A stretch of 62,817 nucleotides of DNA, the filler included, from Aduncisulcus paluster (taxonomy: Eukaryota): assembly GCA_024181965.1 (NCBI GenBank). It is 11 parts of 11 records of this genome, joined end to end, with 100 filler letters (N's around TTAATTAATTAA, not from the genome) between each part and the next. Parts side by side here need not be neighbours in the genome. Positions count along the whole stretch, not along the records: positions 7,233 to 23,149 come from BQXS01011457.1; 10 more parts are not named here. One strand, 5' to 3'. The notes beneath the pieces are model-generated. The model saw only the letters and a program-made list of their open reading frames with translations. It was not told the origin of the DNA and ran no database searches. The position numbers and the translations under genes are program-made. The number at the start of each line of letters is the position of its first letter. Position 1 is the stretch's first letter. Below, piece after piece: positions 2,747 through 57,599 of the stretch.

Positions 2747-2969
2747 TATGGTGGATTTTACTAAAATGATATTTTAGTAAATCCAAATTCATTTAAATCA
2801 ATCCATTGGCATACAAATGCCCGTTTCTATAGAATATTCCATGATTTTTATAAAGATATTTTATATTAAACCAAAATGGGATGTTAAATTATTCATTTTG
2901 AATACTATTCAATGAAAAGGTGAGAAAAATACAATTGGCCGGTTGGTATCGGCTGAGCCGATAGAAAGG

Positions 2970-3120
2970 CACTTCCTTCATATTGATTTGGATACTGATG
3001 TATGCGAAATTGAAGGGAAACAGGGAACGTCTCCCGAAAAGAATTGTCGAAATTTCTTAATCAGATCATCTGATGATCAGAGGAACTTCATCTACTCCCT
3101 TTTTTTTACTATGACAGAAG
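2970..3120 (+). pseudogene. Decayed fragment of the DOC-like repeat domain
   Basis: HFLHIDLDTDVCEIEGKQGTSPEKNCRNFLIRS matches WHFLPIDLDNVVLCEIEGKGTWYEKNSRCFDIRS of the repeat unit; no intact upstream portion. Confidence 0.7.
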
Positions 3121-3351
3121 AAAATATTGCCGCTGAATGTTTGTCTCAACTTCTATGTCAATAATCCAGGATTATATCCTGTGACATGACGATTTTATCA
3201 TGATTCATGTAAAAGGAACCAGTCAAAGACGAATAATTCCATCACAAGTAACAATCACAATTTAAATTAAATTATTTATAATGAGTCAGTAAATCCATGT
3301 AGAAATATTATTTAATATTTCTCCAATCTTTGAAATTACCCAGACTAAACT

Positions 3352-4446
3352 TCATTCTTCCATAACATTGATTTGAGCTATTTTCATCACTTTGACAGGA
3401 TTCCTAAGCTCTGTCTTCGGCAATAGAGGAACTAATGTTTTCTGTGGAATTCTTAACCTCTCTTCAATCTTCGATTTGGGTCTGATTTTAGGGAAAGGAA
3501 GTTCTTCGGGCGCTGGAGGCAATTCAGGATCTCTGGGAGGCAACAGAGGGATTCCTATGTAAGGACCATCTCCAACACCTTCCATACTGGCCTCAAATTT
3601 CATATGTTCGAACCTAACCTCTTCAAGAAGATCCATTTCTCCTTCACCGACATGTGGATAAAACAACTCTTTCATTCTCTCGGAAGAAATGTAAAAAGAC
3701 ATCGGAAGACCAGGCCAGGGACCTGCAGAGTTGGCCCAGAATTCTACCATTCTTATTTCATCTTCTTGAGTCCAATGCTCGACAGATGAACACCGGGCGA
3801 TTCCATCTTTCCATAATCCACTAAATTTGTTCCTAGAGCGACAAAAAAAGTACTCCCCAAGTCCATTTTGAAGACCATTGGCAAAATTACCGAAATATAC
3901 ATCACCGTTAGCTTTAATGAGGATTCCTTTGCCACTTCTTCTATCATCTTCCCATCCACCTCTGTATATTGATCCCCATCCAAATTCTTTCTTTTCTTCT
4001 TTGGTTGGAGCAAGAAATTCAACTCCAAAGCCACACCGTAAACCAGCTTTCCACTGTCCAACATACTTACCACCATCTGTGAGATATAAAGTACCAATTC
4101 CATGCATTCTTCCTTTTTCGAATTGACCAGCATACCCTTTAACAAGGACATCACCTGTTTTTTTATAATAAACACCCCATCCATGCTGAACGGATTCTTC
4201 CCACTCACCTTGATATTTATCTCCACTTTTAAACACTTGGACACCACAACCATGACGTTTACCATCTTTCCAACACCCTTTGTAATGCCCCCCCTTAGGG
4301 TGATATACAGTGGAATGATGACCGTTACGTAGAGATAGATTTTCAAGCATATCCATCCGAGAGGTTTGGGTCTTTATGTCTGTCTCTTCAAATATTGGTT
4401 CATCTAGTTCTCGATGAGAATCTACAATTTCATCGCTATATTGCAT
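3352..4446 (-). CDS. MORN-repeat protein (MORN3-like)
   Basis: About seven YxGxWxxGxxHGxG repeats (YKGCWKDGKRHGCG, YQGEWEESVQHGWG, YVGQWKAGLRCGFG). Likely start MQYSDE at 4446. Confidence 0.9.
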   Translation of the reverse strand: MQYSDEIVDSHRELDEPIFEETDIKTQTSRMDMLENLSLRNGHHSTVYHPKGGHYKGCWKDGKRHGCGVQVFKSGDKYQGEWEESVQHGWGVYYKKTGDVLVKGYAGQFEKGRMHGIGTLYLTDGGKYVGQWKAGLRCGFGVEFLAPTKEEKKEFGWGSIYRGGWEDDRRSGKGILIKANGDVYFGNFANGLQNGLGEYFFCRSRNKFSGLWKDGIARCSSVEHWTQEDEIRMVEFWANSAGPWPGLPMSFYISSERMKELFYPHVGEGEMDLLEEVRFEHMKFEASMEGVGDGPYIGIPLLPPRDPELPPAPEELPFPKIRPKSKIEERLRIPQKTLVPLLPKTELRNPVKVMKIAQINVMEE

Positions 4447-4663
4447 TGCTATTAAATAAATATGATCAAAAAATGCGTTTTTCAAAAAAATCTTCATGCT
4501 CCCTTATTTATTTTCTAAGAAAGGAATTTAATTTTCAATAATTTGTTATATAGATCTCAATTATGGAAATAAATATGCATAAAATTGTCTAATTTGGATA
4601 GGAAAAAGAAAAATTCAAAATGCGATCTTGCAAACAAATCAAACTCGAGCAGATCATTTCACG

Positions 4664-7132: not shown

Positions 7133-7232
7133 NNNNNNNNNNNNNNNNNNNNNNNNNNNNNNNNNNNNNNNNNNNNTTAATTAATTAANNNNNNNNNNNN
7201 NNNNNNNNNNNNNNNNNNNNNNNNNNNNNNNN
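7133..7232. other. Artificial contig linker (first of ten)
   Basis: 44N-TTAATTAATTAA-44N; identical linkers at 23150-23249, 28008-28107, 38461-38560, 42676-42775, 46029-46128, 48797-48896, 52458-52557, 55804-55903, 59840-59939. Confidence 0.99.
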
Positions 7233-10200
7233 CACGCAGAGGGTTTAGGTTGTGAAAGTCGTTTTTCTTGTTTGGTGGAAGAAGAGGAAGGAATATAACT
7301 CTTGGAAGTTACAGATGATGTGATAGAATCTAAGACTTGGACCATTCCAAGATCAGAGAGAACAACTGTACATTCTCCATCTTTGGGATCAACACGAACA
7401 AGGAAGTTATCAGGTTTGACATCTCGATGGACAAGGTCTTTCTTTGCTCTAAACACATCATCAAGACACTCAATCATGCCAACACAGAGAGAACATACTT
7501 TCACAGGATTTAGTGTCATGGGATCAAAATGAGTTGTGCCAATATTATACTTGGAGTCAGAATCAGAAATACAAGATGAATCAGAATCTTCACTATCATC
7601 AGCATCACCAATATCACTCACATACTTGCCATCATCACACCAACTTCTAGCAAATGCACTCACACTACCTCCAGCACAATATTCCATGATAAATCCATAT
7701 TCACCTTTCATATCTGCATCAAGAAGATCAAGGATATACAAAGGACGAGGGATACGAATGAAACATTTGCCATTTGTAAACAATTTGAGTTGCATCTTGA
7801 ACTCCTTTCGACATTCTTTAACAACACTTTCATCAGCTTCACGGAGCATTTTCTTCAAAACACAAGGAATAGGAATACCTTCAACTTTAACAAGAAGAAC
7901 CTCACCAAATCCACCATAACCAATGATGCACTGAGGAGTCATGGTTGCAGAGGAAGTGAGAGTGAAAGAGTCATGTTTGATAAGCTTTGTGGAATCTGAA
8001 GGAAGGGGAGGAATGTCTTCACCTTTAATGAAAATGAGGGATTTCATTTTAAAACTTCGACGACCCTTCTCATATTTCCCTGTCCATTTTCCCTGAATCT
8101 CACATAATACAACATTTGGAAGATCAATAGGAAGAAAGAAGTAATATTTAGGTTTTTGTAGATCTTCTGTGAATTCATACCTCTTGGATATCTTCTTTCC
8201 GTTAGAAAGAGTGAAAGTGAAGAGAAGAGCAGAACAATCATCAAATAAAGTAATATATGCACCTTTAATTGAATTAAGTGATTGAAAAGGGATAGAAATA
8301 TGGGAAAAAACTATGTCACCTTCCCCCTTTAACATTTTTTGTGCATCTAAGCTCTGATCATACTTCTCAGATTCCTTACAACATACATTATTCTTACACG
8401 TAACATCTGAGAAAGAAGGCTTTATGATTGAGGTATCATCAAGGGAATCTACAATTTCTTTGGTTACAGATATTGGTATCACAGGTGAAGATTTCAACCA
8501 GAGTTCTTCGAGATCTATTTTTTGTTTTTTTCGAGCAATATATTCATCAGGAGTTTCTTCTCGATAAAAAGCAAGGGAAGAAATATCGAAATGCTCCCTT
8601 TCTTCTTCGTATCTTTTGATATCACATGAAACAACATCACTGAGGTCAATTGAAAGCCTAAACCAACGATCTGAAAAATCAGAAAACTCATCAAATTTAT
8701 ATAAATATGATATTTCGTTTCCATTTGAAGAAGTGAATGTGAAAGTAAGAGATGGAGATTTACGAGATGATAAACATAGACAGATATAGGCACATTTTAT
8801 AGATGTTGATGATTTGAAAGGAATGGAAATAAAATAAAACTTATAACCACCACCCTCTCCTTTAATCATCATCATCGCTTGTGCACAATCGCTCTGATAA
8901 TATAAACTTTCATATTCTATTTCCATTCTTCCATTAATTCTTGCTTTAATTGCAAAAAATTCTGGAATGATAAATGTTGGATCATCTCGAGGGATTGGAA
9001 TGCATGAAGGATCTTCATTATAGATATATTCAGCTTTTCTCAATAAAATACGTTGTTTGAGGAAAACTAAAGAAGTGATTGCAAAACATCGACTATTCTT
9101 CTTCTTCCACCTTCCTTTCCCTTCAATCTCACACAATACAACGTTATACAAATCAATAGGAAGGAAGTGCCATTCATAGTCATTTTCAGGTTCTATGAAT
9201 TCATACTTCTTGAATGTCTTCTTACCATCACAATCAGTGAAAGTGAAGAGAAGAGAGGGTGAACTAGTATTCTTATTCACACAGATATAAGCACCTTTCA
9301 TTGGACTAGGTGATGGGAAAGGAATGGAAAGATGGGATAATTTCACCCTACTTTCGCCTTTCAACATTTTTTGAGCTTTTTCACTTTGGTCATACTCCTC
9401 AGATTCCTTGCTCACCGAATAATTCTTTCCCTTGACCATCTCAAAAGAAGGATTATTAACGGCTGCATTATCACGTGGAATGGGGATGGCAGATGGATCG
9501 CCAGAATTCACAAACTCTGATTCAATGGTGGGCTATATATCATTTTTGAAAAAAGAGATATATAATGGTATTAGAAACAAATCAAGAGATAATATTGTAA
9601 AACAAGATTAGCGTGAATCGTATCAAATAATAAAACAAAGAAATGTGAAAATATTAAACCAATAAAATATAATGAACATACAGCTTTAGACCATTGTTCC
9701 TCAATGGATTCTCGAATACAACGTTCTTCAGGGGTTTCTTCTCGAAAGAATACGAGGGAGAGGATGACAAAGTATCGACTATTCTTCCACCACCAACTTC
9801 CTTTCCCTTCAATCTCACACAATACAACGTTAGCCAAATCAATAGGAAGGAAGTGCCATTCATGGTAATGTTTAAGTTCTGTGAATTCATACTTCTTGAA
9901 TGTCTTCTTACCATCACAATCAGTGAAAGTGAAGAGAAGAGAGGGTGAACTATCAACCACATCCACACAGATATAAGCACCTTTCATTGGACTAGGTGAT
10001 GGGAAAGGGATGGAAAGATGGGATAATTCCACGCTACCTTCACCTTTCAACATTTCTTGAGCTTCTTCACTTTGGTCATACTTCTCAGATTCCTTACTCT
10101 TCGAATAATTCTTTCCCTTGACCATCTCAAAAGAAGGATTATTAACGGCTGCATTATCACGTGGAATGGGGATGGCAGATGCATCGCCAGAATTCACAAA

Positions 10201-12705
10201 CTCTGATTTAATGGTGGGCTACATATCATTTTTGAAAAAGAGATATATAATGGTATTATAAACAAATCGAGAGATAATATTGTAAAATAAGATTAGCGTG
10301 AATCGTATCAAATAATAAAACAAAGAAATGCGAAAATATTAAACCAATAAAATATAATAAACATACAGCTTTAGACCATTGTTCCCGAATACAACGTTCT
10401 TCAGGGGTTTCTTCTCGAAAGAATACGAGGGAGGGGATGTCAAAGTGTCGACTATTCTTCTTATTCCACCTTCCTTTCCCTTCAATCTCACACAATACAA
10501 CATTATCCAAATCAATAGGAAGGAAGTGCCATTCAAATTGATGTTCAGGTCTTGTGAATTCATACTTCTTGAATGTCTTCTTACCATCACAATCAGTGAA
10601 AGTGAAGAGAAGAGAGGGTGAACTGGAATCATTATCTACACAGATATAAGCACCTTTCATTGGACTAGGTGATGGGAAAGGGATGGAAAGATGGGATAAG
10701 GATACTCTATCTTCCCCTTTCAACATTTTTTGTGCACCTGAACTCTGATCATAATACTCAGATTCCTTACAAAACGCATCATTCTTGCACTTAACCATTG
10801 AGAATGGAGAATCTACGGGCTTTGAATCATCACGTGGAATGGGAATAGATTCTCTACCTTGAGATTTTCTATCTCCTTCCTGAACAAACTCTGGTTTCAC
10901 AACTGGGGCTTCAGACCAGAGTTTCTCTCTGGCTCACGAGATTTGATTTCTTCAGGAGTTTCTTCTCTACTTATGAAAACAAGGGAGTCGATTCTAAAAT
11001 ACTCTTTCTTTCTTCCTTTCCCTGTAATCTCACACAGAATAACATCAGGGAGATCAATAGGGAGAAAGAACCAGCTCCAATGATAACTTCTAAATTCAGG
11101 AAATTCATATTTTTTAATTGTTTTCTCCCCCTTTGAAGATGTAAGAGAGAAGATAAGGTGTGAAGGAGGTGATTCTCCTGTATCTCTTCCTCCAATACAA
11201 ATGTAAGCACCTTTAATGGGAGTTGATGTGGAGAAAGGAAGGGAGATATCTGTAAATTCTGCGCAATGACCTAACCGATGAAATTCCTCTCCTTTCATCA
11301 TCTTTTGTGCATTAAAACTCTGATCATATTCTTCATCACCTTCTTCTTTGGTCCTATTCTTAGCTTCGATAACAGTTATATCAGGACTCTTAACATTCGG
11401 GGAATCTCGAGGAATTGGGAGACAAAAGTGATTTCCTTCATGAATAAACTTTGGTTTATCTTCTCGAATACAACGTTCTTCAGGGGTTTCTTCTCGAAAG
11501 AATACGAGGGAGCGGATGTCAAAACATCGACTATTCTTCTCATACCACGTTCCTTTCCCTTCAATCTCACACAATACAACATTATCCAAATCAATAGGAA
11601 GGAAGTGCCATTCATACCAATGTTTAGGTCTTGTGAATTCATACTTCTTGCATGTCTTCTTACCATCACAATCAGTGAAAGTGAAGAGAAAAGAGGGTGA
11701 ACTATCATACTTGTTCACACAGATATAAGCACCTTTCATTGGACTAGGTGATGGGAAAGGAATGGAAAGATGGGATAATTTCACCCTACTTTCGCCTTTC
11801 AACATTTTTTGAGCTTTTTCACTTTGGTCATACTCCTCAGATTCCTTTCTATACGAATCATTCTTGCACTTAACCATTGAGAATGAAGGATCTACAAGCT
11901 TTGGATCATCATGTGGAATGGGAATAGAATCTTTCCATCCTTCCTTAACAAACTTTGGTTTCACAACTGGAGCTTCAGACCATAGTTTCTCTCTAGCTTC
12001 ACAAGCTTTGATTTCTTCAGGTATTTCTTCTCTACTTATGAAAACAAGGGAGTAGATTCTAAAAGACTCTTTCTTTCTTCCTTTCCCTGAAATCTCACAT
12101 AGAACAACATCAGGGAGATCAATAGGAAGAAAGAACCAGCTATCATTTTCTAATTCAGGAAATTCATATTTTTTAAACATTTTCTCCCCCTTTGAAGATG
12201 TTAAAGAGAAAATAAGGTGTGATGGGGGTGGAGAAATGGATGATTCTCCTCCAATACAAATATAAGCACCTTTAATGGGAGTAGATGTGGAGAAAGGAAG
12301 GGAGATTTCTGTAAATACTCCTCCATTACCCTCTCCTTTCATCATCTTTTGTGCTGCAGAACACTGATCATACCCATTATCACCTTCTTCCTTGGTCCTA
12401 TTCTTAGCTTCAATAACAGTTATATCAGGACTCTTAACATTTGGGGAATCTAGAGGAATTGGAGAGCTAGATAAATAACCTTCATGAATAAACACTGGTT
12501 TAACTTCTTGAATCTAACAAATTTAATTGAGTTTTTGGTGGAAATAAAGCAATAAAAAACACCCGAAACAGAAAATGGGTTATGAAAGCAATATGGGCAT
12601 TATTTTTCAAATTAATGATATAAAACATCATAAAATGTATAAATTCAAAAACTTTCAGAAACATACAATATCTTGGCTACGTTCTGAGCTTGGTTTTGGA
12701 TCCAT
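7233..12705 (-). CDS. Multi-exon Ser/Thr kinase with eight N-terminal tandem DOC/APC10-like domains; 3'-truncated; one frameshift
   Basis: Exons 12705-12667 (MDPKPSSERSQDI), 12513-10367, 10218-9682, 9532-7233. Phase-0 GTATGT..TAG introns 12666-12514, 10366-10219, 9681-9533 join the ORF-track pieces in frame. One base missing near 10935. Kinase motifs IIGYGGFGEV, VLKK, HRDVKPDN, SDLG. Confidence 0.85.
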
Positions 12706-13344
12706 TGTGTTCTAAAATGTCTATGATGAGAACACGAACGATAATAAAAATAATATGATAATTTTAACAAAGAATGTCACCACAATCATCGAACATGAAG
12801 TGAGTTTCAAGGAGGAAATGAGGACAAGAACAAAAAAGAACAGCCGGCGAGAGAACCAGTGAATAAAACATGGTGATTATGGATTGACAAGAAGTTAATA
12901 TCCAACTAACGAAAAATTATGACATACAATATTTTCAATATTTCTTTTACAACAGGAAGAAATGAAGTTTTAGAATTCAAAACTCTGTATAATAACAATG
13001 CAAGATGACATTGCAGAATATATCGATTAAAAAATATAAATGGTTTCTTTCTAACATATATTGGATATCAATCTTGTCATTCCACTCCTGACACAAAATC
13101 GTTTCCTAAGTCCCGAGTTTTGTTCACATATTGTATTGTAAAGTTTTATTGTTTGATGATAAGTTTTGGGTTTAATCTGTGAATGTTGTGGATTTATTGG
13201 TAGATGACTATACTTGTCTGATTCCTGGTTTTCCCCCTCCAGAGCTTGTTTGAAAATGTAATATCATTTGTTTTAGATTTTTTTGTTTTAAATTCTCTGT
13301 TGAGAGTTAGTGAATCTTTAGTTTCCTTTCCAAGTGGTGTAATA
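12534..13344. repeat. ~810-bp repeat copy A (upstream region, exon 1 and most of intron 1 of the kinase gene); candidate terminal inverted repeat
   Basis: Colinear with 57731-58541 with scattered substitutions; homology stops abruptly after CCAAGTGGTGTAATA. Confidence 0.9.
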
Positions 13345-13744
13345 TATATATATAAATATCATATTTATATGGCATATATATATATTGCTGATATATTTGC
13401 ATGCCTCGCAAGCCATGTGTTTTCAATATATCACAGCTATTTCTTTGAGATCTAACAGAATTTATTTTATTTTCGTCAACAACTCGATAATCACCATTTC
13501 TCCCTAAATCCACTAAGTGGATTCCACTTAAAAAATTGAAGAAATATCCTCACTCTCACTCTTACGAACAACCATAATCTCTCAAGCTATAACTTAAGAT
13601 GTATTTCCACTCAATATTTTATGATTGTAGATAAAGACCAAAATAAAGTTCTGAGAAAGTGTTAGATTAGGATGTTTTACTTATTGTAATTGAATGACAT
13701 CTAAGAAGAGTGATTTCACAATATCTGAGCGCACTTATGACCTC

Positions 13745-16429
13745 TTAAGGAGCTAATTTAACCGGGACAAGATCCCACATTTCAGCGTATTCTTTGATTG
13801 TTCTGTCAGAAGAGAAATGGTAACTCTTGCTGACATTCATAAGCATCTTACGAGCCCACTCAATCCTATCGATATACAAGGCATCAACTTCGTCCTGAAT
13901 ATCAAGGTAAGCAGCGAAATCATGAGCAACACAGAACCAATCTTTACCACTTCTAATGGTATCAGTAATAGGTTTAAAGTACTCTTGGCAACCGAACATA
14001 CCACTGTCGATGGCATCAAGGGCATCAATAAGACGGGGGTCAAGCTCTTCAGTGAGAGTACCGCTCTGGTATCCCTTCCTAACCTCAATAATCTCAGTCT
14101 TTGAGGCACCAAAGAAGAACACGTTATCCTCACCGACATGATCACCAATCTCGATGGAGGCTCCATCACGAGTGGCAACAAGCAATCCACCGTTCATGCT
14201 TGCTTTCATGTTACCGGTTCCGGCGGCTTCCATACCGGCGGTGGAGATTTGTTCAGAAATATCAGATCCAGGGAAAATAAGCTCTGCAGATGATACGTTA
14301 TAGTTGGGGATGAAAACAATCTTTAAGAAGTCAGAAACATCACGGTCATGGTTGACAAGTTCACCAACAGATGTGATCAATTTGATAATTCTTTTGGCTC
14401 TGTCATAACCAATGGCGGCCTTTCCAGCGAATAAACACATCCTTGGGACAACGTTGGCATCCTTGAGTTCCTTGATAGCAGCTTGACGAGCACTTTCAAC
14501 ATCCATTTTCTTGGAATACTCAGCAGTGGCTTCCACAACAATACGCTTGATACTCAGGAAACGGACAATGACATGGAGAATGTTCAACAATTGTCTCTTG
14601 TACTCGTGGATTCTCTTGACTTGGGTGTCGAAGAGCATATCGGGGGAGACGTCAACATCACAGGTCTCCTTGATGAACTCAGCAAGACGAGTCTTGGCAA
14701 CGTACTTGACCTCCAAGAGTTGCTCGAGGGCAGCACGGGACTGGGAGAGCTCAGCAAGCTTGGCAAGGTGGTGCAACTGAACAGGCCACTCTTCCTGACT
14801 GCAAACAACTCCAAGTTGCTCAAGATGACGGTAAATAAATTCAGAGAGGGCAGGGTTCGCTTGAGCAATCCATCTACGGGGCGTGACACCGTTAGTGAAG
14901 TTCACAATCTTCTCAGTTCCGTAAAACTCCTCAAAGTCACGGAATAAGGAAGCCTTAAGGATATCAGTGTGGATACGGGCCACACCATTCACCTTGTTGG
15001 AACCAACGATGGCAAGGTTGGCCATACGGATACGTTGTTGGTCACCTTCAGAGATTAAGGACATACGACGGATTCTGTCGACGTCTCCAGGGAACTTCTT
15101 CTCGACTTCTTCAAGGAAACGGTGGTTGATCTCGTAAATGATCTGCAAGTGTCTTGGGAGCATCATCTTGAACATATAAACAGGCCACTCCTCAAGAGCT
15201 TCAGGCAACACAGTGTGATTAGTGTAGAAGCACATCTTACGAACAATCTCGAAGGCTTCGGTCCACTCAAGTCCTCTGTAACCAATAGTTTCAATATCGG
15301 CACCATCAATAAGAAGACGCATCAACTCGGGGATAGCCATGGCAGGATGGGTATCGTTGAGCTGAATAGCGAAGTGCTTGGGGAGATCCTTGGCCTCAAT
15401 GCCTTGGGACCAAGCCTTGCTGAGGATATCTTGGAGGGAAGCAGACACAAAGAAGTACTCTTGCTTGAGCCTCAACCTCTTACCTTCCTCGGATTGGTCA
15501 CCAGGATAGAGCACATAGGTGATATTCTCGGACAGGGCCTTGCTCTTGACGGCAGCGAGGTAGTCTCCGCTGGCATGGGCATCAAGGGAAAGCTCACTGG
15601 AGGCACGGGCAGACCACAGACGCAAGTGGTTGACATTGGCAGTGCAGGATCCTGGGATCAAAGTATCGTATGCCACGGCGTTAACAACTTCACCACCTTC
15701 CCAGTCGAACACGGGGCGACCGGTGGTGGGGTCAGTTTTATGGGAAGTGTGACCATAGAAACGGATGGGGTATGTGAGTTTAAAACGCTCAATTTCCCAA
15801 GGGTTTCCTCTTCTCAACCAGTTCTCAGGCTTCTCAACTTGGAATCCTTCCATGATGGTTTGCTCAAACATACCGAAATTGTACCTCAAACCATATCCAA
15901 CGGCAGGAAGGGACAGAGTGGCAAGTGAATCAATGAAGCAAGCAGCAAGACGACCAAGACCTCCGTTACCCAAAGCCATGTCGCTTTCTTCGGCCTGAAT
16001 CTCCTCCAAAGAGAAGGAAAGCTCCTTGAGAGCAGCTCCATAGGGACCGGTCAAACCAATGCTGTAGAGAGAATTTGTCAGAGCTCTACCCATCAAAAAC
16101 TCAAGAGAAAGGTAGCATACGGTTTTGGCACGAGTCTCTTCATATTTCTTCTGGGTCTTGTTCCACCGATCGAGCATACGGTTACGAATAGAAGTAGCAG
16201 TGGCTTGGAAGATTCCAAACACAGCACAATCCTTTTGAGTCCTTCCAAGAGAAAACTTGACATATGAAACAATATCAGCCATAATGGTATCTTTGTCACC
16301 ACGAGGTGCAGACACCATCAAGTGGGTGAAAGCAGGAGAAGGAGGTCTAGCATGACCCTTGGATTTTCCACCTGGAATTGGAGGTTTTTTCTGTCCAGAC
16401 TTCAAATATTTGAGTTGTTTCCCAAGCAT
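13745..16429 (-). CDS. glgP: Glycogen/alpha-glucan phosphorylase (GT35)
   Basis: YLSLEFLMGR, LGNGGLGRLAACF, IQLNDTHP, NGVTPRRW, QVKRIHEYKRQLLN and PLP-lysine motif EAAGTGNMK. Start uncertain (MLGKQ at 16429 or downstream MVSAP). Confidence 0.97.
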   Translation of the reverse strand: MLGKQLKYLKSGQKKPPIPGGKSKGHARPPSPAFTHLMVSAPRGDKDTIMADIVSYVKFSLGRTQKDCAVFGIFQATATSIRNRMLDRWNKTQKKYEETRAKTVCYLSLEFLMGRALTNSLYSIGLTGPYGAALKELSFSLEEIQAEESDMALGNGGLGRLAACFIDSLATLSLPAVGYGLRYNFGMFEQTIMEGFQVEKPENWLRRGNPWEIERFKLTYPIRFYGHTSHKTDPTTGRPVFDWEGGEVVNAVAYDTLIPGSCTANVNHLRLWSARASSELSLDAHASGDYLAAVKSKALSENITYVLYPGDQSEEGKRLRLKQEYFFVSASLQDILSKAWSQGIEAKDLPKHFAIQLNDTHPAMAIPELMRLLIDGADIETIGYRGLEWTEAFEIVRKMCFYTNHTVLPEALEEWPVYMFKMMLPRHLQIIYEINHRFLEEVEKKFPGDVDRIRRMSLISEGDQQRIRMANLAIVGSNKVNGVARIHTDILKASLFRDFEEFYGTEKIVNFTNGVTPRRWIAQANPALSEFIYRHLEQLGVVCSQEEWPVQLHHLAKLAELSQSRAALEQLLEVKYVAKTRLAEFIKETCDVDVSPDMLFDTQVKRIHEYKRQLLNILHVIVRFLSIKRIVVEATAEYSKKMDVESARQAAIKELKDANVVPRMCLFAGKAAIGYDRAKRIIKLITSVGELVNHDRDVSDFLKIVFIPNYNVSSAELIFPGSDISEQISTAGMEAAGTGNMKASMNGGLLVATRDGASIEIGDHVGEDNVFFFGASKTEIIEVRKGYQSGTLTEELDPRLIDALDAIDSGMFGCQEYFKPITDTIRSGKDWFCVAHDFAAYLDIQDEVDALYIDRIEWARKMLMNVSKSYHFSSDRTIKEYAEMWDLVPVKLAP

Positions 16430-16908
16430 ACGTAGTACAATTTGATTAATTTTTTGATGATCTTCGCAAATTATTTTCAGAGACAAAATAATTAGATTTA
16501 ATCACATAATAAATTGCAACATAACCAATTCAATTTTTTGCCAATGACAGATTTATGATATTTATTTGCTTTCCGATTTTGATTATCACGGCTAAAGTGT
16601 TTTTGCCACATGTTTACTGCAATATTTTTGAAAGATTTTTCCATATTTTTGCGGATAATTTCTTTAGTTTCTCTGAACTATGATTGAATAACTCAGGAGA
16701 AAGTCAATCCCATTTGAAGCCTGTATGCATTGAAAAAAATGTATCACAACACATATTAGTGAGAAATAAAAATTCAATCAAGGGAAAAAACGAGGATATA
16801 CATAAACGCAGTCAATTCACGTCGATAGGCAGTGGAATAAAAATAGATTTGACTGTCGTGGCATATCACCCTTTTTTTGCATAACACTTTAAGCAAAATT
16901 AACAAAAA

Positions 16909-17370
16909 ATGGATTTCGATCAATGGCAAGAGTATTTCCTCTCTAAATTTTATCATCAAGATGACGAAAACCCTCTTAAACGTACTCCTAAAGAAGTAGT
17001 TCCTGACGCCGCTCTTTATGGAATGGATGGAACTATGTGGGGTTGTACTTATGAAAAAGAAGGTGATTTTTACATTGACACCGATGCCCTTAAGGTTCTC
17101 ATGGGTGGAATCTCAGGAGACGAAGCCATTTTCTCTGGTTTCAAATGTCACGAACAAAAGTTTGTATTCATTAAGTCTGCCAAGAACCCCGATGATTCTA
17201 TCAAATGGTTATACTTCAAAGCCCCCGAGGATCGTGGTGCCTTCGTTTGGGTTAGTCCCGGCCGTGAGTGCTTCGTCTTTGCTTACCATGCCCCTGGAAG
17301 AGAGAATCAAGCTAACAGCTCCATGATGATTAGCAGATTCATGAGGACCATGGAAAAGGCTGGATACTAA
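16909..17370 (+). CDS. Profilin-like protein
   Basis: 153 aa; N-terminal WQEY, AALYGMDGTMW, central GFKCHEQKFVFI, C-terminal helix ending AGY, all profilin-like. Confidence 0.7.
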   Translation: MDFDQWQEYFLSKFYHQDDENPLKRTPKEVVPDAALYGMDGTMWGCTYEKEGDFYIDTDALKVLMGGISGDEAIFSGFKCHEQKFVFIKSAKNPDDSIKWLYFKAPEDRGAFVWVSPGRECFVFAYHAPGRENQANSSMMISRFMRTMEKAGY

Positions 17371-17864
17371 TGAAAATGAAAAATCATGCATAATTGGAAG
17401 ATATTTAAAATAAAAATCAACTAAACAAAAATATTTTTTATCATATTGGTAGTTTCTGGATCCAGATGCTAGAATAATGTTATATTTTCGAATTCCTGGC
17501 TGATTTCATAGATTTGTTCGTTTTGTCTGTTCTACAATTACTCCACAATTTTTTACCAACCTATTTTTACTCTCATTGATGTATATTAGGTGAAATATTG
17601 CCTTGTATACCCGAATTGTGCTATATTTTCAGTTCCTTCTATTCTGTTCGCGAAGTTCACAACTTCGTAGGGAAGTTCCCTACTAACACGATACCGATCC
17701 GTAATAATCAGATAAAATTGATTCCCTACTTCGATAAATTAAGTGTAAACATGTTCAAACATTTCAAAAATTTATTATTTGTCATCTAACAAAGATTCAG
17801 TGACCCAATCTCAACAAATGCCATCTGCACAGCAATTTAAATCAATACATACAAGGAATATTGA

Positions 17865-20741
17865 TTATTCCATACCGATACGCATAGTTTCCATAACCCA
17901 TTGGATATGAACAGCCTTATCCGAAGCCTCACAAATCTTGATTGCCCCATCCAAAGCATCAATTCCTTGTTCGAGAGGATCCTGATCTTTAATGATCTTC
18001 TTAACCTTGACCAAAGCAGCGAGTAAATCGTCTCGTTTCGAAGGGCAACACATACATATCAATTCAAGCAGCCAAACTATACGTTTAACAATATTGATGT
18101 GAGCCTTTGAGACACTTTGGAAAACCCCTTCGTATAAGAAGGAAGCAAACTGCACAATTACATCCACAACTCCTTTACGAGCTTGAGCAGAAGGGAAAGG
18201 AGTGCTTGGGCTGATCATTTGACTGAAAATAACTTTCCCTAGTCTCACCAGAGTACCCTCACAGGCCTCAATTGCTGACAAACACACATCTTCTGAAGGG
18301 TCAAACAAAGATCCAGGCAGATATGAAGCAGATAGGAGAGATCTTGAGTAAGCTGAGCATGAGGGAATAGCCATAGCAAGCTGTGGTAAAAGAGATTCGA
18401 TTTGAGGAGGGAGTTTGTATGGAATTGGAGGGGGAAAAGATACGAAATTGATTGGAGATATCAAATATTTTGTCGCATAAGCGCATTGCATTTCCTTGAG
18501 CAATCCTAATTGATCCATTTTTTGCAGACAGACAGAGAACATATCGGCATCATATGCATCATCAAAGAGCTTATTTATGGTAGAGGAATCAAGCATCTCT
18601 TGCTCTTTTCTAGAGTGTCCTGAAGAAGCTATTATCCCCGTGTCTGCTTCATCTTTCACCCTTTGAGTTTCTTTCTTCACTCTCTGAAGACCGTACTCTT
18701 TGAGGACACATAGGGAGAACACTGCATGAGGGAGAGAGTCAAGGGAGATGAAAGGAGAGAGGATATGAGTGAGGGTAAGAGCTGACATGAATACTTTCTC
18801 AGTGACACGAGATACACAGGCTTCAACCGTTTGCTGTGTCTTGGATTCCCTTTCATCCTCTCCAAGGATAAGCACATAAGAGTACATCTGTCCAAAAGTG
18901 GATCTCTTCTCTTGCTCTGCCTTGTATGACATGATGCGATGCATTGTTGTGAACAAAGTCTCAACCAACTTCTGAGGAATAGGATTGGAAGTGTCATATA
19001 AGGTTGTAATGGCATTAGCAAATAAATATATGGTATCGTCACACACTACAGAGGCCAAATGAACCAAAAGAATGGTTTCCTTCTCCTTGCATGAGCCTTC
19101 TCCTCCTCTCCCATCAGCCTCCATTCTTCTAAGCATCTTGACAGCCTCACAAATCATGTTAATCTCATTCATACTAACAGATATACGGGTGAGAGTCAAC
19201 GAACAGAGAACAGAGAGCAGAGAGTTGAACTTAAGAAGGGAAAGAAGAAGGATTGAGCAACATATGCCTTCAAGGCCTTCTCCAACAACACCAAGAGAAA
19301 GCAACATAATGGAACACAAATAGCATCCGACAATGCAATTGCCATCATCCTGTTCGTTCACACTCTTGAAGGAATGGAGAATCCGATCACTATCGAAAGA
19401 AACCGATCCAAATATAGAACGAACACAACTCCTCAGCATATCTGAGAAACGATGGAGTGTGTCATGAGTATGTTTCTCCATCAATGGGTCCTTGGCACGT
19501 TCATCCTTATATTCGTTGAGATATCCGAAAATATGGGGTACAATGATGCTGCTCAGGCAGAACCGAGAGATATCGTCACTATGCTGAACAAAGACACTCT
19601 CATTCATTAAACGGGAGTCAACGAAGCTCTTCTCAACAGCCTCAGATGTAATACACGGGAATAGGACAGAAATATCATCACTGTTCTTGAGAAGAAGCTC
19701 TGGAGGGATACCAACGCACAGCAAAAGTCCAATACGACAGTTGGGATTGGTGCTGAGAACTGAATTCTCAAGAGCGGATACGTTTTGCATCTCCTCTTCT
19801 CCTCCACCGGTCTCAATTCTCTCATGTTCACGAGCACGTTGAGTCAAGCACTGACAGGCAGTGACGGCAAGAGTCTCGAAATAGGTCAATGGAGCAGTAG
19901 ATGAGGGGCTAGCAGAGATTAAAAATGGTTTAACTTTGTCAAGACAGACATGACAAGCGGCTGAAATGCTTTGGATGATCGTGTGAGCAAGACGTCCGTT
20001 CGTGGCAACATTCTTGAGCAAACGATCAAAGTTTGAAGGGAATACCTGTTTAGATGACACCATACCGGGAGAAGAATCGGGAGTCATCTGTGGAGAAACC
20101 TTAGAACTGCTGTGGACAAGCTCACCAACTCCAAAACCGCCACATTCCCATAGACACATTAAACTATCCTGGGTTCCGATGGATATGAGCATATCTCCTC
20201 TGATAACATCATTTCCAAAGGAAGGAGGCAATTGTTTAATTGTGTTATAGACTTGTTGTCTGAAACGATCAATAGTGAAGCGGCTTGAGACAAGAAGGGA
20301 GTAAATGGATGGATAAATGGGAGAAATATCGTGTTTGGGCAAAAGAGATGTCAGAATTGAGTTGTTAATACTCAAAAGACGATAAGTATCACTGTCTGAA
20401 ACAGTGTTTTTGGCAAGGGAATAATAGATACCTATAGCTAACTTAAGGAAAATTACAGTTAAAGGAGAAGTTGAATCGATTAAAAAATGAGAGAATTTGG
20501 GTTTCATCCTAAAAATAGTGATAATTTTTTCGGTATAATCATATTTGCTCGAATCAGAATAAAAAGTGGTTGGAGTGGTTTCATATGTTTGTTCGTTGAG
20601 CTGTAAAAGCTGAACTAATGCATCATTTGTTGCGTTTCCAATAAGTTTATGGTGATCTGGGCCAATAGTTTCTAATGTCACAGCTTTCGCGTAATCAACA
20701 CAAATACCGTACCATTGTTTGTATATTATTTCGCCGTTCAT
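17865..20741 (-). CDS. Large hypothetical protein (~958 aa), probably alpha-solenoid
   Basis: Uninterrupted 2.9-kb ORF, Leu/Ser-rich; no family recognised. Likely start MNGEII. Confidence 0.75.
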   Translation of the reverse strand: MNGEIIYKQWYGICVDYAKAVTLETIGPDHHKLIGNATNDALVQLLQLNEQTYETTPTTFYSDSSKYDYTEKIITIFRMKPKFSHFLIDSTSPLTVIFLKLAIGIYYSLAKNTVSDSDTYRLLSINNSILTSLLPKHDISPIYPSIYSLLVSSRFTIDRFRQQVYNTIKQLPPSFGNDVIRGDMLISIGTQDSLMCLWECGGFGVGELVHSSSKVSPQMTPDSSPGMVSSKQVFPSNFDRLLKNVATNGRLAHTIIQSISAACHVCLDKVKPFLISASPSSTAPLTYFETLAVTACQCLTQRAREHERIETGGGEEEMQNVSALENSVLSTNPNCRIGLLLCVGIPPELLLKNSDDISVLFPCITSEAVEKSFVDSRLMNESVFVQHSDDISRFCLSSIIVPHIFGYLNEYKDERAKDPLMEKHTHDTLHRFSDMLRSCVRSIFGSVSFDSDRILHSFKSVNEQDDGNCIVGCYLCSIMLLSLGVVGEGLEGICCSILLLSLLKFNSLLSVLCSLTLTRISVSMNEINMICEAVKMLRRMEADGRGGEGSCKEKETILLVHLASVVCDDTIYLFANAITTLYDTSNPIPQKLVETLFTTMHRIMSYKAEQEKRSTFGQMYSYVLILGEDERESKTQQTVEACVSRVTEKVFMSALTLTHILSPFISLDSLPHAVFSLCVLKEYGLQRVKKETQRVKDEADTGIIASSGHSRKEQEMLDSSTINKLFDDAYDADMFSVCLQKMDQLGLLKEMQCAYATKYLISPINFVSFPPPIPYKLPPQIESLLPQLAMAIPSCSAYSRSLLSASYLPGSLFDPSEDVCLSAIEACEGTLVRLGKVIFSQMISPSTPFPSAQARKGVVDVIVQFASFLYEGVFQSVSKAHINIVKRIVWLLELICMCCPSKRDDLLAALVKVKKIIKDQDPLEQGIDALDGAIKICEASDKAVHIQWVMETMRIGME

Positions 20742-21393
20742 TGATATAATGTTGTTTTGTTTTGAAAAAATTGTAGATTTGCGAAGAAAAAGTAAAATGA
20801 TCAAAGTGAATTCTTCTAATAAGCTGTGCATTTCATCTATTTGAAGAATAAATTTATTGGTTGAAATTGTTAAATTGATTAAAGAACCAGTATTCTTGAA
20901 TAATTGATCTCATATATATTAATTATACAAACACTTGGAGGAGAACCGTTCCGAACGGAGAGTCTCCCTTTAAGTGACTCAAAACTTTTCTGATTGATCA
21001 AAATCAGAATTTTTACGAATAAAAATTGGAAATATAATATATATTAGCCCATTTCCCAACAATATAACGCCATCTAAAAACTATTTTGTAAAACGCCACT
21101 TGAAGCTATTCAAGAGCCAATTGGTATCTTGCAAAAGGCATTTTACAAATATTTTTAAAGTATGATTACTTTTCCTAACTTTAAATTAAAAATAAGGTAT
21201 CTATTGAACGGTAGAAAAACAACACTCATTGTTATTATAATAATTCACAGAAATATGGTACTATTTGAATTAATTAAAAACATTTTCAACGTTTAATTTT
21301 ATGCATCCATGGATGTCTGCTCATATTTTTTTTTTCGGTACACAAAAACTCCAGAAGGTTTTCTACCATTATTTGATTGCTTACTACTTCAAC

Positions 21394-23149
21394 ATGGAAC
21401 GAGAATGCAATATATATGAATATTGCTGTTGTTTCCAAAAGAACATTGATTATTGTTCTCTATTCTGTATGGTAATGGAAGCGCTTGAATCATTTTATAG
21501 GGATCAAAGGCGTATTTTTCATGGACAGATAACTCCAAGTGCAATCCATATTATTTATAATAAGAAAACGCATATTGAAAGTGCTAAAGTTGGTTCTTTA
21601 TCACCTTCAAAGGTAACCTTTGTTTTCCCCGATCTTTTTGGAAGCTCTGACCCCCAAAAGCATCCTTTTGATTTTATAAAATATGATCATTCAACTTCTA
21701 AACATGTTTATTTTGATCATTCTAAGCAGATCTCACTCTATTCGCCTCCTGAAGTTATCTCTGGTTCTAGACCCAGCAAGTCTCCTCAATGTGATATTTA
21801 CTCCCTTGGTCTTGTTTTATTTTCTTGTATTACTACCGATATTCCATTTCTTATCTCATCTGTGGCAGCAGTTGATATTCTCAAAAATATTGGCGATTTG
21901 TCGAATTCAGTTATGAAATTATTTGAAATGCATCATTCTTCATGCATTCCGTCGGCAAATGGACGAGTATTTGACATTATAAACCAGCATGAATTGTTAA
22001 TGGGACCAGATCCAACTAACTCTGAAAATAACATCCTTAACCTTCTTCTAGCATCCGTTATTGACCAAATGACACGGTATAACGCATCAGAAAGAGTCCA
22101 TTTTAGATTTATAAAGGGTCAATTCTCCATGATTCGTAAGTTAGCTCACCCGCCCTCTTTTCCTCGTGATTCAGAGACCTCCACGGCTCAAAAACCAGAT
22201 AAAGAGTCCAAAACAATCACATCTCCGCGAATTCAGGACTCCCATTTTCCAACTATATCCCAGAATTCGAGTTTCTTGACACCCTCACTCGATTCAACTG
22301 TCGGAAATGTTCCTACTTCACCTTCTCCATCTTCCACTGACTTTCTCACAACTATAAATAGTAACATGTGTGTTGATACTACCTTTGAACATAAGTTGGA
22401 TGATATTCATCAAGAAATTGATGAGAAGAACATAAAAGATAAGAAATCTGCCAAGAAAGCTCTAAAATCAAAGAAAAAAGAGGAAGAAGAGAAAGAAGGG
22501 AGAAGAAGAAGAAGAAGAGAAAAAAGAAGAAAAGGGTCAATTTGATGCTGTTATTCACCCTCTTGCTCTTTCTTCAGCTTCTCCCGCTGTTAACACAATA
22601 CTTACTCAGAAGATCGTTGAAGAACATGCTAAAGAACAACATAAACCTTCTCAACAATCTATTTTTGGACAAAAACAACAACCAGATCAAGAACAGGCTG
22701 CAGTATCGATGGTATCTTCTGGAGATCTTCCTTTCTTCAGGTTCTTCCACGATGACCCTATCTTATTCCCTATAAATGGACCTCTCTCATCTATAAATAT
22801 ATCTATTGAGAAACTTGAGAATAATTACCATGATGAACTGAGTTTTGATTGTGAGTTCTTTTGTGCTAAAGATCCCACTGATTCTTCTTCTTCTTCTTCT
22901 TCTTCTTCTTCTTCTCATTCTGTTGAATATAATATTAGAAAACATTCGCCTGAACTGATTTCTATCAAGGCCCAACTGTGGAAATTCCTCTCTTCTTCTT
23001 CAAATATTCCCTGTTCAGTGTCACTATGTATATTTTTAGACATTGAGAAACTTGAATCTGTTGTTGACCATTTTCCGACTGAATCTGACCTTCAACTCAC
23101 CATCAAAGAACTTTCTGAGATTTTATCTGTCTATTTTGATGAGACCATC
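21394..23149 (+). CDS. Kinase-fold protein (probable pseudokinase), frameshifted in a purine tract, 3'-truncated
   Basis: FHGQITPSAI (HRD position), PDLFG, YSPPEVI, CDIYSLG. After the GAA-rich tract at ~22470-22535 another frame (GQFDAVIHP...AVSMVSSG) is open into the 22709 ORF. Confidence 0.65.
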
Positions 23150-55903: not shown

Positions 55904-57599
55904 ATCGTATCCCTCGTCCTTTGTATATCCTTGACCTTCTTGATGCAGATATGAAAGGTGAATATGGATTTATCATGGAATATTGTGCTGGAGGCAGTGT
56001 GAGTGCATTTGCTAGAAGTTGGTGTGATGATGGCAAGTATGTGAGTGATATTGGTGATGCTGATGATAGTGAAGATTCTGATTCATCTTGTATTTCTGAT
56101 TCTGACTCCAAGTATAATATTGGCACAACTCATTTTGATCCCATGACACTAAATCCTGTGAAAGTATGTTCTCTCTGTGTTGGCATGATTGAGTGTCTTG
56201 ATGATGTGTTTAGAGCAAAGAAAGACCTTGTCCATCGAGATGTCAAACCTGATAACTTCCTTGTTCGTGTTGATCCCAAAGATGGAGAATGTACAGTTGT
56301 TCTCTCTGATCTTGGAATGGTCCAAGTCTTAGATTCTATCACATCATCTGTAACTTCCAAGAGTTATATTCCTTCCTCTTCTTCCACCAAACAAGAAAAA
56401 CAACTTTCACAACCTAAACCCTCTGCTTGTGGAACTATCGTGTATAATTCTTATGAGACTCTCTGTGAAGGAAAACAGACTCAAAGGAGTGATGGATATT
56501 CTCTTGGAATGTCGATTCTTGCCTTGTTCCAATGCGCTGATCCCTTCATATCCCTGCCTGTATTTCGAGGTGTTGTTAATAGTTATGATATTATGCATAC
56601 CATGCTGAGTTTGATGGAAAAGAATAGAGTTCCCAGATTATGTTCTTCTGATCTCTTCAAAACATTACGAACCATTGAAGATGGGAAATATAAATCTGTT
56701 CATGCATGTTTGAATGAAATATTCACAGGTCTCACTAAACTCAATGAAGATGAACGTATGAGTGTTCATGAAGCTCGCAAGAAAGTGCAATCTATCAAAG
56801 ATTTATTGCCCCAGATTGGAGAAGGAGCAGAATTTAAATGTCCATCCATTGAGGATATTGTAAAACGTCAGCTTGAAAAGTATAAAGGGTACGCTGGATG
56901 TATTGAAGAGGTAAAGGAAGATGAAACTGAAAAACAGAAACAAGATAGTGAATCATCACCAAGACATGCTACACCCACTTTAACAACAACAAGTCCTTCT
57001 GAAATGGAGAAGAAAACAGGAGATGGCAATCAACCTCTTCCTGTAAGTTCAAGCTATACTATAGGCACTAGTAGTGGAAGTAAGACAAGAATATCTCCAA
57101 AGATTGAGGAAAAGAAGAAGCTTGAGGAAGAAGAGGAAGAAAGAGAACATGACACTCAAATTGAAGATAAAGATACAGGTGTGGANNNNNNNNNNNNNNN
57201 NNNNNTGAATCATCACCAAGACATGCTACACCCACTTTAACAACAACAAGTCCTTCTGAAATGGAGAAGAAAACAGGAGATGGCAATCAACCTCTTCCTG
57301 TAAGTTCAAGCTATACTATAGGCACTAGTAGTGGAAGTAAGACAAGAATATCTCCAAAGATTGAGGAAAAGAAGAAGCTTGAGGAAGAAGAGGAAGAAAG
57401 AGAACATGACACTCAAATTGAAGATAAAGATACAGGTGTGGATGGTTCTGGCTATCATATCTTCCCATCAGGTATCTCAAAAGACACTTTCTCACTTAGT
57501 GCTATGAGTTCAATTCATAGTACACAGTTCCAGTCATCAGAACTTGATAAAGAGCACGATAAGGAACATGATAAGCAACATGATACTCCCCATGAGTAA
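55904..57599 (+). CDS. C-terminal half of the same (or near-identical) kinase as 7233-12705; 5'-truncated
   Basis: 55905-56429 matches the reverse complement of 7757-7233 with four substitutions seen; continues CGTIVYNSYE, SDGYSLG, ERMS. Collapsing the 237-bp overlap across the 20-N gap gives one frame to TAA at 57599. Confidence 0.9.

Follow-up and report, generated by a model that had tools for sequence, protein, structure and literature searches.

We analyzed a 62.8-kb stretch of DNA (the window) from Aduncisulcus paluster, a free-living, bacterivorous fornicate flagellate (metamonad) related to Giardia, and in particular its partial gene ADUPG1_010144, which encodes eight tandem units of about 170 amino acids followed by a protein kinase domain that is ended by the contig edge. 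Each unit combines a nearly invariant framework with hypervariable residues at fixed positions, and the same design recurs in a large family of A. paluster proteins. The best reading of these data, to which we assign a probability of roughly 0.6, is that the family constitutes a cytosolic recognition repertoire shaped by concerted evolution together with diversifying selection. A previous, sequence-only reading of the gene had described eight DOC/APC10-like domains with a fixed framework and hypervariable loops and had proposed a kinase-coupled cytosolic sensor; the fixed framework and the hypervariable patches were confirmed and could be extended to the whole family.

The array spans positions 8018 to 12504 (minus strand, as for every feature of the gene given below). 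When unit 4 was used as the tblastn query, eight collinear minus-strand copies were returned, and a hidden Markov model (HMM) built from the eight units recovered 8/8, which bore out the eight tandem units first proposed. Read from the N-terminus, the subtype order is B-A-B-A-A-A, followed by two divergent units. The B-type units 1 (12013 to 12504) and 3 (10933 to 11457) are 49% and 47% identical, respectively, to unit 4 (10370 to 10900), the A-type reference, and the A-type unit 2 (11461 to 11964) is 79% identical to it. Unit 5 (9685 to 10212; 71% identity) has an A-type core with a second N-terminal subtype, unit 6 (9053 to 9526; 70%) has an A-type core, and units 7 (8525 to 9001; 41%) and 8 (8018 to 8440; 53%) are the divergent ones. 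All eight were placed by tblastn; units 1, 2, 3, and 6 are additionally delimited by the HMM and unit 5 by the sequence itself, units 1 and 2 were modelled as a pair, and unit 4 was modelled alone and used for the fold searches.

Hypervariable positions recur across the family

Variable columns were defined outside ADUPG1_010144: the 119 other proteins supplied 152 A-type units of nearly full length, which were aligned over 168 profile columns, and a column was called hypervariable when its entropy was at least 2.5 bits. Fourteen columns were hypervariable (43, 49, 59, 61, 83 to 86, 115, 140, 141, 146, 148, and 150), with 12 to 19 residue types in each, and 45 of the 168 columns were conserved at 95% or more in the same 152 units. 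Mean pairwise identity was 14% at the hypervariable columns, as against 80% for the remaining core columns and 67% for the N-terminal third, and the hypervariable residues were enriched for D, E, Y, K, N, S, R, and W. Ten of the 14 columns were likewise hypervariable in 89 B-type units. Of the 96 core columns, 23 varied within the window, and these included all 10 core hypervariable columns (hypergeometric P = 1e-7). The variable patches quoted from the window in the sequence-only reading are real and fall on the columns found to be hypervariable in the 152 units of other genes. The combined signature was unique in 156/156 A-type units, and the patches were unlinked, in that units sharing one patch were 0.17 alike at another, compared to a background of 0.14.

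In unit 4, hypervariable residues 65 and 67 (columns 59 and 61; positions 10700 to 10708) occupy i and i+2 positions before LSHLSIPF. Patch 1 consists of residues 89 to 92 (columns 83 to 86; 10625 to 10636), with entropies of 2.6 to 3.5 bits and 14 to 17 residue types, and the codon for residue 121 (column 115; 10538 to 10540) has 19 residue types and a variant letter at 10540. Patch 3 consists of residues 146, 147, 152, 154, and 156 (columns 140, 141, 146, 148, and 150; 10433 to 10465), and its variable positions alternate with invariant F and I. The variable residues of columns 59/61 and 146/148/150 are interleaved with hydrophobic ones that do not change (x-V-x-L and x-F-x-I-x-S), a pattern typical of side chains that face outward from beta-strands. 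Contigs assembled from the public run broke exactly at the variable patches: at 10699 beside residues 65 and 67, at 10624 and 10638 in paralogue contigs flanking patch 1, and at 10448 in patch 3. Among the 40 best supported of 131 public-run variant positions, the 37 that fall in unit 4 comprised 31 nonsynonymous and 6 synonymous changes, with 16 lying in hypervariable codons; being selected by support, this set is no guide to rates. The same variant letters appeared at similar shares in a second run (X2).

The draft genome was assembled with MaSuRCA from 150-nt Illumina reads into 25,863 contigs with an N50 of 4.6 kb and 15,316 predicted proteins (PMC9933649), and the window is a chain of short contigs. 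Both circumstances would suit an explanation in which k-mer error correction and repeat collapse had inflated the uniformity of the framework and the shuffling of the patches, as would the contig breaks at variable patches, which fit a collapsed de Bruijn graph. Such an artefact is nonetheless very improbable, because adjacent patches lie 66 to 72 nt apart and are linked by single reads, because run X2 repeats the variant letters, and because position-specific variability was found in 337 units of 120 separately assembled genes. Moreover, codon-periodic variability at structurally sensible positions is not something that an artefact could create.

DNA divergence is concentrated in the hypervariable codons

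The framework blocks had been called nearly identical even at the DNA level, and this held for the four A-type units 2, 4, 5, and 6, in which 2/63 bases (LSHLSIPFPSPSPMKGAYICV), 1/54 bases (LFTFTDCDGKKTxKKYEF), and 3/63 bases (EWHFLPIDLxNVVLCEIEGKG) varied, i.e., 1 to 3 variable bases in blocks of 54 to 63. Between pairs of these units, 15 to 19 of the 30 bases in the 10 core hypervariable codons differed, compared to 7 to 19 of the 258 bases in the other 86 core codons (Fisher P values of 4e-13 to 3e-8). Outside the hypervariable codons, base identity in the core was 93 to 97% among the four units, and protein identity over the whole unit was 70 to 79%. The B-type units 1 and 3 gave the same contrast (19/36 versus 43/420 bases). 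By the method of Nei and Gojobori, the proportions of synonymous (pS) and nonsynonymous (pN) differences in the non-hypervariable core were 0.078 and 0.047, respectively (omega of approximately 0.6). Divergence at the hypervariable codons was about sevenfold that at neighboring synonymous sites and more than tenfold that of the introns.

Units 5 and 6 serve as a natural control, since their N-terminal thirds differ at 4.7% of bases and their hypervariable codons at 19/30. For units 4 and 5, conversely, base divergence is 32% across the N-terminal third and 3.9% across the core. These comparisons show the units to be mosaics in which the core framework has been homogenized relative to the flanks. 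The contrast of the hypervariable codons with flanking synonymous divergence and with intron divergence strongly suggests diversifying selection on these codons. A mutational mechanism resembling that of diversity-generating retroelements, which is adenine specific, was considered and rejected, as variation in the hypervariable codons affects every base and each of the three codon positions.

The mosaic divergence and the duplicated introns of the gene show that recombination has taken place, and it might be argued that concerted evolution alone, with no adaptive diversification, accounts for the pattern, the variable sites being unconstrained or missed by conversion tracts and many copies possibly decaying. 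An omega of about 1 in the hypervariable codons and about 0.6 in the rest of the core, as well as the frameshift in ADUPG1_010144, would agree with this explanation. However, unconstrained sites would be expected to diverge no more than the introns (4%) or the synonymous sites of the core (pS of 0.078), whereas the hypervariable codons differ at 50 to 63% of bases. Invariant codons stand between variable ones (x-F-x-I-x), and conversion tracts cannot skip alternate codons; the same columns vary in the B-type units, which diverged independently; and 45 columns conserved at 95% or more over 152 units indicate purifying selection on intact proteins. On balance, we regard evolution without adaptive diversification as quite unlikely.

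The unit is modelled as a jelly roll

AlphaFold2, supplied with family alignments, modelled units 1 and 2 as two beta-sandwiches linked by a helix (predicted local distance difference test [pLDDT] of 94.4; predicted template modelling score of 0.88) and unit 4 alone with a pLDDT of 92.4. The single-unit model was aligned exhaustively to 48,161 chains and ranked by Z score, and Foldseek was run separately. The leading matches were human APC10 (5a31_L; Z of 12.1 over 148 aligned residues; root mean square deviation [rmsd] of 3.6), the CBM32 domain of ZmpB (Z of 12.0; 133 residues; rmsd of 2.9), and yeast Doc1 (8a3t_A; Z of 12.0; 147 residues; rmsd of 3.0). The DOC domains of HECTD3, CUL7, and HERC2, together with muskelin, IFT25, and many CBM32 domains, were matched at Z scores of 10.7 to 11.1, and F-lectin structures were also among the matches (3cqo, Z of 9.9; 1k12, Z of 9.5). 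A Z score of at least 8 was reached by 71 to 81 chains, nearly all from the galactose-binding domain-like superfamily, and the fold matches displayed the eight-stranded beta-sandwich topology of that superfamily. With Foldseek, APC10 chains took 8 of the top 11 rows for the single unit (E values of 7e-5 to 4e-4; template modelling score of approximately 0.5). The two-unit model gave 310 matches at E values of 0.001 or lower, led by the tandem CBM32 domains of ZmpB, neuropilin b1b2, and the factor VIII C domains (E values of 6e-10 to 3e-6). The jelly roll proposed earlier is thus supported by the model of one unit and by the fold searches, and the modelled fold is that of a galactose-binding-domain-like jelly roll. 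Among the structural matches to this model, APC10/Doc1 is nominally the best and the longest, tied with CBM32 within one Z unit.

At the sequence level, no Pfam family was found on the units at E values up to 1 in pieces of the window or up to 10 in 32 diverse members, nor on the unit region of 20 distant relatives, and the F5_F8_type_C and CBM32 profiles gave no match to the units in the window pieces or the 32 members. A single unit searched against PDB sequences yielded 0 matches at E values up to 10, and a profile search of PDB sequences yielded nothing significant, with YdhK the sole match (E values of 0.76 and 1.4) and APC10 absent. Look-alikes in the ESM Atlas were all below threshold (<0.9) and serve as leads only (FlaA, 0.84; CBM32, 0.79; F5_F8_type_C, 0.77). 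Because the Z scores are tied and the sequence signal is missing, the unit cannot be filed in the DOC family. The description "DOC/APC10-like" consequently stands at the level of fold (Z of 12.1 and the Foldseek result) and fails as a statement of sequence family membership, there being no Pfam match and no cullin or HECT context.

By the strand order of the model, the variable positions map to the loop that precedes a strand starting near residue 66, to loops 90 to 95, 115 to 121, and 142 to 152, and to the residues with which the neighboring strands begin. Since the unit matches the eight-stranded CBM32 fold at an rmsd of 2.8 to 2.9, its 20-residue strand runs would have to be hairpins, in which case the variable loops would alternate and hence would lie at the same end of the sandwich, the one through which discoidin and CBM32 domains bind their ligands. 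The hypervariable residues of a unit probably form one exposed surface, judging by this strand order.

A large family restricted essentially to A. paluster

A word-indexed protein search limited to proteins of 311 to 2000 amino acids gave at least 231 proteins at E values of 1e-3 or lower among 451 candidates, and 120/120 of the matches listed were from A. paluster. The eight-unit HMM identified 415 units in these 120 proteins, at 2 to 8 per protein, with two units in 53 of them. A profile search of 1.84 billion representatives returned 173 clusters at 50% identity and as many as 15 units in one protein; when the sources of 20 representatives were checked, 17 were A. paluster, 1 was a further NCBI protein, and 2 were evidently spurious repeat proteins, one of them an HYR protein from Bacteroidales and the other from a planthopper. 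The unit family is restricted essentially to A. paluster. No description of it was found in the literature on A. paluster or on the expansion of kinases and other gene families in Fornicata, and the genome announcement makes no mention of it (PMC9933649).

Public reads point to many more copies. Contigs with at least 80% likeness to one unit numbered 9,273 in DNA run X1 and 1,593 in run X2. Summed depth over the unit core reached 3.7 million, and 8/8 of the listed variant-specific long pieces lay at a depth of about 1,150 to 1,360 or, in one case, of 2,479. As a rough estimate, the genome may hold on the order of 10^3 unit copies, summed depth not being a copy number. Such depths for the listed long pieces are those expected of germline, fixed single or double copies. 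Somatic diversification was judged unlikely, given that variant-specific contigs show uniform, single-copy-like depth. Intron 2 was also multicopy in run X1, with (over 10224 to 10366) a summed depth of 160,000 to 213,000 compared to about 1,250 for a single piece, which indicates that whole cassettes of unit plus intron have been amplified many times. Run X2, which we guess to be RNA (none of the listed runs is recorded as such), had zero cover over this intron (bins 10224 to 10347), where X1 was covered; the 15 of 84 joints listed included none across the intron, and this difference was not used as evidence of splicing or expression.

Kinase domains recognized by Pfam were present in 28/120 of the listed relatives. 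Other architectures included a 3,335-residue protein (P0122) with 10 units, a PARP catalytic domain, and a kinase, and relatives such as P0009 and P0052 with a Vps4/fidgetin-like AAA ATPase or RNI-type leucine-rich repeats (LRRs). No cullin, HECT, or APC/C context was seen among these partner domains (kinase, PARP, AAA, and LRR). Four relatives bear the name "NudC domain-containing" with no supporting Pfam match. Among 254 retrieved proteins, 48, mostly two-unit B-A proteins of about 365 residues, end in a conserved tail (..ERLSLLPWK) that could be a docking or sorting motif. Twenty of the 254 start with MG (e.g., MGLGCCSS, MGCSSSK, MGGCQS, and MGSTES), and these starts are candidate sites of N-myristoylation or palmitoylation, which, if used, would tether some members to membranes on the cytosolic side.

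These architectures bear on the possibility that the arrays are substrate-docking or scaffold modules of endogenous signaling that bring self-proteins to the kinases of an expanded family, in which case the variability would reflect divergence in specificity among paralogues. DOC and muskelin/IFT25-type jelly rolls, which are intracellular protein-protein modules, are among the best fold matches, the fused domains are signaling enzymes, and the ..ERLSLLPWK tail could be an internal docking motif. Set against this are the 156/156 unique signatures and the 14% identity at hypervariable columns, seemingly an excess of specificities for a self-proteome of about 15,000 proteins, and the absence of the family from other sequenced organisms, which is unlike a conserved housekeeping role. 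We consider docking of self-proteins unlikely.

The 1,660-residue product of ADUPG1_010144 contains neither a signal peptide nor a transmembrane segment according to a hydropathy scan, as had been stated before: its highest 19-residue Kyte-Doolittle window is 1.43 and falls inside the kinase domain, and its N-terminus (MDPKPSSERSQDI) is hydrophilic. The hydrophobic windows of the relatives likewise fall mostly within kinase or beta-strand segments. Together with the kinase domains of the relatives, these sequences are consistent with the cytosolic, kinase-coupled protein that had been proposed. Variant surface or secreted antigens comparable to the Giardia VSP or Trichomonas BspA proteins might be suspected in a large, hypervariable family from a fornicate related to Giardia, the more so as the MG starts, often MGxxxS or with cysteines, could carry lipid anchors; the latter, however, would face the cytosol. 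Given also that the fusion partners are cytosolic enzyme domains and that the best fold matches include the intracellular DOC, IFT25, and muskelin domains, a role as surface or secreted antigens is highly improbable.

Structure of ADUPG1_010144

The array gene lies on the window piece from 7233 to 23149 (15,917 nt), occupies positions 7233 to 12705 with its start codon at 12705 to 12703, and encodes a protein identical to the partial 1,660-residue NCBI protein P0001 of A. paluster. The frame through the units opens at 12513, and there are three GT..AG introns. Exon 1 (12667 to 12705), read from the sequence, encodes MDPKPSSERSQDI, which equals the N-terminus of P0001. Intron 1 (12514 to 12666; GTATGT...TAG) is supported by the spliced junction in P0001, as is intron 2 (10219 to 10366; GTATGT...TAG; phase 0; 148 nt), which follows unit 4. 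Intron 3 (9533 to 9681; phase 0; 149 nt), which was read from the sequence, follows unit 5 and duplicates intron 2, the two being mismatched at 6 of the roughly 145 bases that align (4%). The exon between introns 2 and 3 (10218 to 9682; 537 nt; phase 0-0) encodes exactly one unit. Tandem Repeats Finder (period of 500 or less) reported nothing within the gene, a blank that is uninformative because the units are 470 to 680 nt apart and too divergent outside the core.

Comparison with the linker between units 1 and 2 revealed an apparent 1-base frameshift (10897 to 10934), in which a base is missing at 10933/10934 and a TGA stop follows at 10899 to 10897. The P0001 model spans the frameshift by a short intron (REPERNSG|DRKSQ) and thereby loses a conserved linker, AREKLWSEAPVVKPEF, that can be read intact if the other frame is used. 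The extra base at 10933 is present in about half of the summed public-contig depth, most of which comes from paralogues.

The truncated protein kinase domain (7233 to 7927; GYGGFGEV, VLKK, HRDVKPDN, and DLG) was detected with Pfam, scoring 25.8 bits against PK_Tyr_Ser-Thr (cutoff of 23.1) and 29.4 bits against Pkinase, under the cutoff of 31.7 for that model. The full-length paralogue P0002 matched Pkinase with an E value of 1.2e-14. By sequence, the nearest solved kinase to that of P0002 was RIPK1, weakly (E value of 8e-7), followed by BMPR1B, a CDPK, and TTK, which is a weak hint that this kinase may be of the tyrosine kinase-like type. The anatomy given in the sequence-only reading was retained with respect to the eight units, to which the subtypes, the three introns, the frameshift, and the loss of part of the kinase at an assembly join (7133 to 7232) can be added.

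Other features of the window

That join is artificial (N44-TTAATTAATTAA-N44), and the same linker occurs at ten places, chaining the short contigs of the window; a separate run of 20 Ns lies at 57186 to 57205. Because the window is a chain of joined contigs, gene neighborhood across the linkers is meaningless. On the plus strand of the first contig, an open frame at 1 to 1182 gave two weak matches to the family HMM (E value of 3e-6), and an isolated fragment, ERHFLHIDLDTDVCEIEGKQ, at 2916 to 3161 (plus strand) gave one at 5e-7; they may represent a divergent family member plus a remnant exon. Two minus-strand frames were judged by eye only, one at 3352 to 4497 that is MORN-repeat-like (repeated YxGxWxxGxxHGxG) and one at 13745 to 16486 that is glycogen phosphorylase-like.

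Interpretation and significance

The anatomy of the array gene, the fold class of the unit, the size and taxonomic restriction of the family, and position-specific hypervariability at the protein and DNA levels are directly established. In the recognition repertoire that we favor, each unit would consist of a near-invariant framework presenting about 12 to 14 hypervariable side chains, located in four alternate inter-strand loops and at i and i+2 positions of the adjoining strands. The units would be ligand-binding modules held in rigid tandem arrays of 2 to 15, and the arrays would act as multivalent cytosolic sensors that relay binding to the fused Ser/Thr-type kinase or, occasionally, to a PARP, AAA, or LRR domain. 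Such a repertoire would be germline encoded. Units would multiply by tandem duplication and exchange sequence through recombination or gene conversion, and some of them would behave as cassette-like phase 0-0 exons with duplicated introns. Recombination would homogenize the framework, and selection for diversity would keep the contact positions different.

How far each step of this proposal can be taken differs. Selection, rather than mutation bias, probably maintains the hypervariability. That the units bind ligands and that the arrays serve as multivalent sensors for the kinase is likewise what we infer from the pattern. Their ligands may be non-self molecules, whether of prey bacteria, viruses, or conspecifics, and only by pure inference would we ascribe an immune function to the array proteins. 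Still more tentative, and to our minds possible rather than probable, is the idea that about a thousand cytosolic DOC/discoidin-like units, borne in arrays on RIPK-like kinases and other effectors and each with a unique hypervariable contact surface, make up a previously undescribed germline innate recognition system that is diversified by cassette-exon duplication and by recombination between invariant framework blocks. It would be equally tentative to regard such a system as the functional counterpart of an NLR repertoire, built on a different fold and with no NTPase switch, in a free-living bacterivorous metamonad.

Several points weigh against the favored reading. Within the hypervariable codons, pN was 0.54 and pS was 0.58 on about 5 synonymous sites per pair, so that omega is approximately 1, and this value is uninformative because these codons are saturated. 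The low divergence of the flanks may itself have come from gene conversion. Assembly from 150-nt reads could have over-corrected framework blocks of 54 to 63 bases that are shared by hundreds of copies, and chimeric combinations of patches from short reads could also yield apparent independence of the patches. The proposal of a single variable surface depends on the order of strands assigned by DSSP in the model, and if two 20-residue DSSP runs were single strands, the variable positions would fall into two clusters at opposite ends of the sandwich. The frameshifted copy of ADUPG1_010144 may be a pseudogene, and the AAA, LRR, and PARP fusions may be either true combinatorial architectures or merged draft gene models. 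Finally, no NACHT or NB-ARC NTPase was found in P0001 or in the relatives scanned.

Hypervariable binding modules make up germline repertoires in the NLRs of plants and animals, the repeats of fungal NLRs, the VLRs of lampreys, and a few lectin families. To our knowledge, hardly any comparable system is known from free-living protists, and none built on a jelly-roll fold. The pattern seen in ADUPG1_010144 extends to a family far larger than one gene. If the recognition repertoire is real, then the family would fill a noticeable share of a 29-Mb genome. It would add to the scaffolds on which natural binders diversify, show how concerted evolution and diversifying selection combine on whole domains, and open a way into the study of non-self recognition in metamonads, to which Giardia belongs. 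Families of this sort are poorly served by short-read assemblies and automatic annotation: the deposited model spans the frameshift by an invented intron, and some members are called "NudC domain-containing" without support.

Comparison with known systems

APC10/Doc1 and the DOC domains of HECTD3, HERC2, and CUL7 resemble the units in being intracellular beta-sandwich jelly rolls, and the APC10 alignment is the longest, covering the N-terminal extension of the unit. They differ in that the units have no match to the ANAPC10 profile and no ubiquitin-ligase context, and DOC domains are single copy and conserved, whereas the A. paluster units stand in tandem hypervariable arrays. Discoidin, F5_F8 type C, and CBM32 domains are of the same fold class (CBM32 Z scores of 11 to 12), and the tandem CBM32 domains of ZmpB and neuropilin b1b2 were the best matches of the two-unit model (E values of 6e-10 to 3e-7). 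Discoidin and CBM32 domains bind ligands through loops at one end, and in discoidin domain receptors (DDRs) a domain of this class is likewise coupled to a kinase. Those domains, however, are extracellular or secreted and the DDRs are transmembrane proteins, whereas the array protein has no signal peptide, no transmembrane segment, and no sequence match to them. More generally, the layout of receptor kinases (DDRs, lectin-RLKs, and the Entamoeba TMKs) was not found in the array protein, which has no signal peptide and no transmembrane segment between sensor and kinase.

Oyster sperm bindin, a secreted protein of gamete recognition, consists of 1 to 5 tandem F-type lectin jelly rolls that have undergone recombination and positive selection on the binding face. 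It is alike in broad fold and differs in having no kinase and no sequence relation to the A. paluster family. The closest described logic is that of the fungal NLR repeats. The WD40, ANK, and TPR repeats of these cytosolic proteins (HET-E/D/R and NWD) are tandem units highly conserved at the DNA level that evolve in concert by repeat shuffling, bear on the binding face a small number of positions that are hypervariable and positively selected, and are joined to various effector domains (PMC4986451). The pattern of the A. paluster array matches this description, with positive selection a probable feature of it. It differs in having no NACHT or NB-ARC domain, in an output that is mostly a kinase, in its metamonad flagellate host, and in varying a whole jelly-roll domain of 170 residues in place of a solenoid repeat of 33 to 42 residues.

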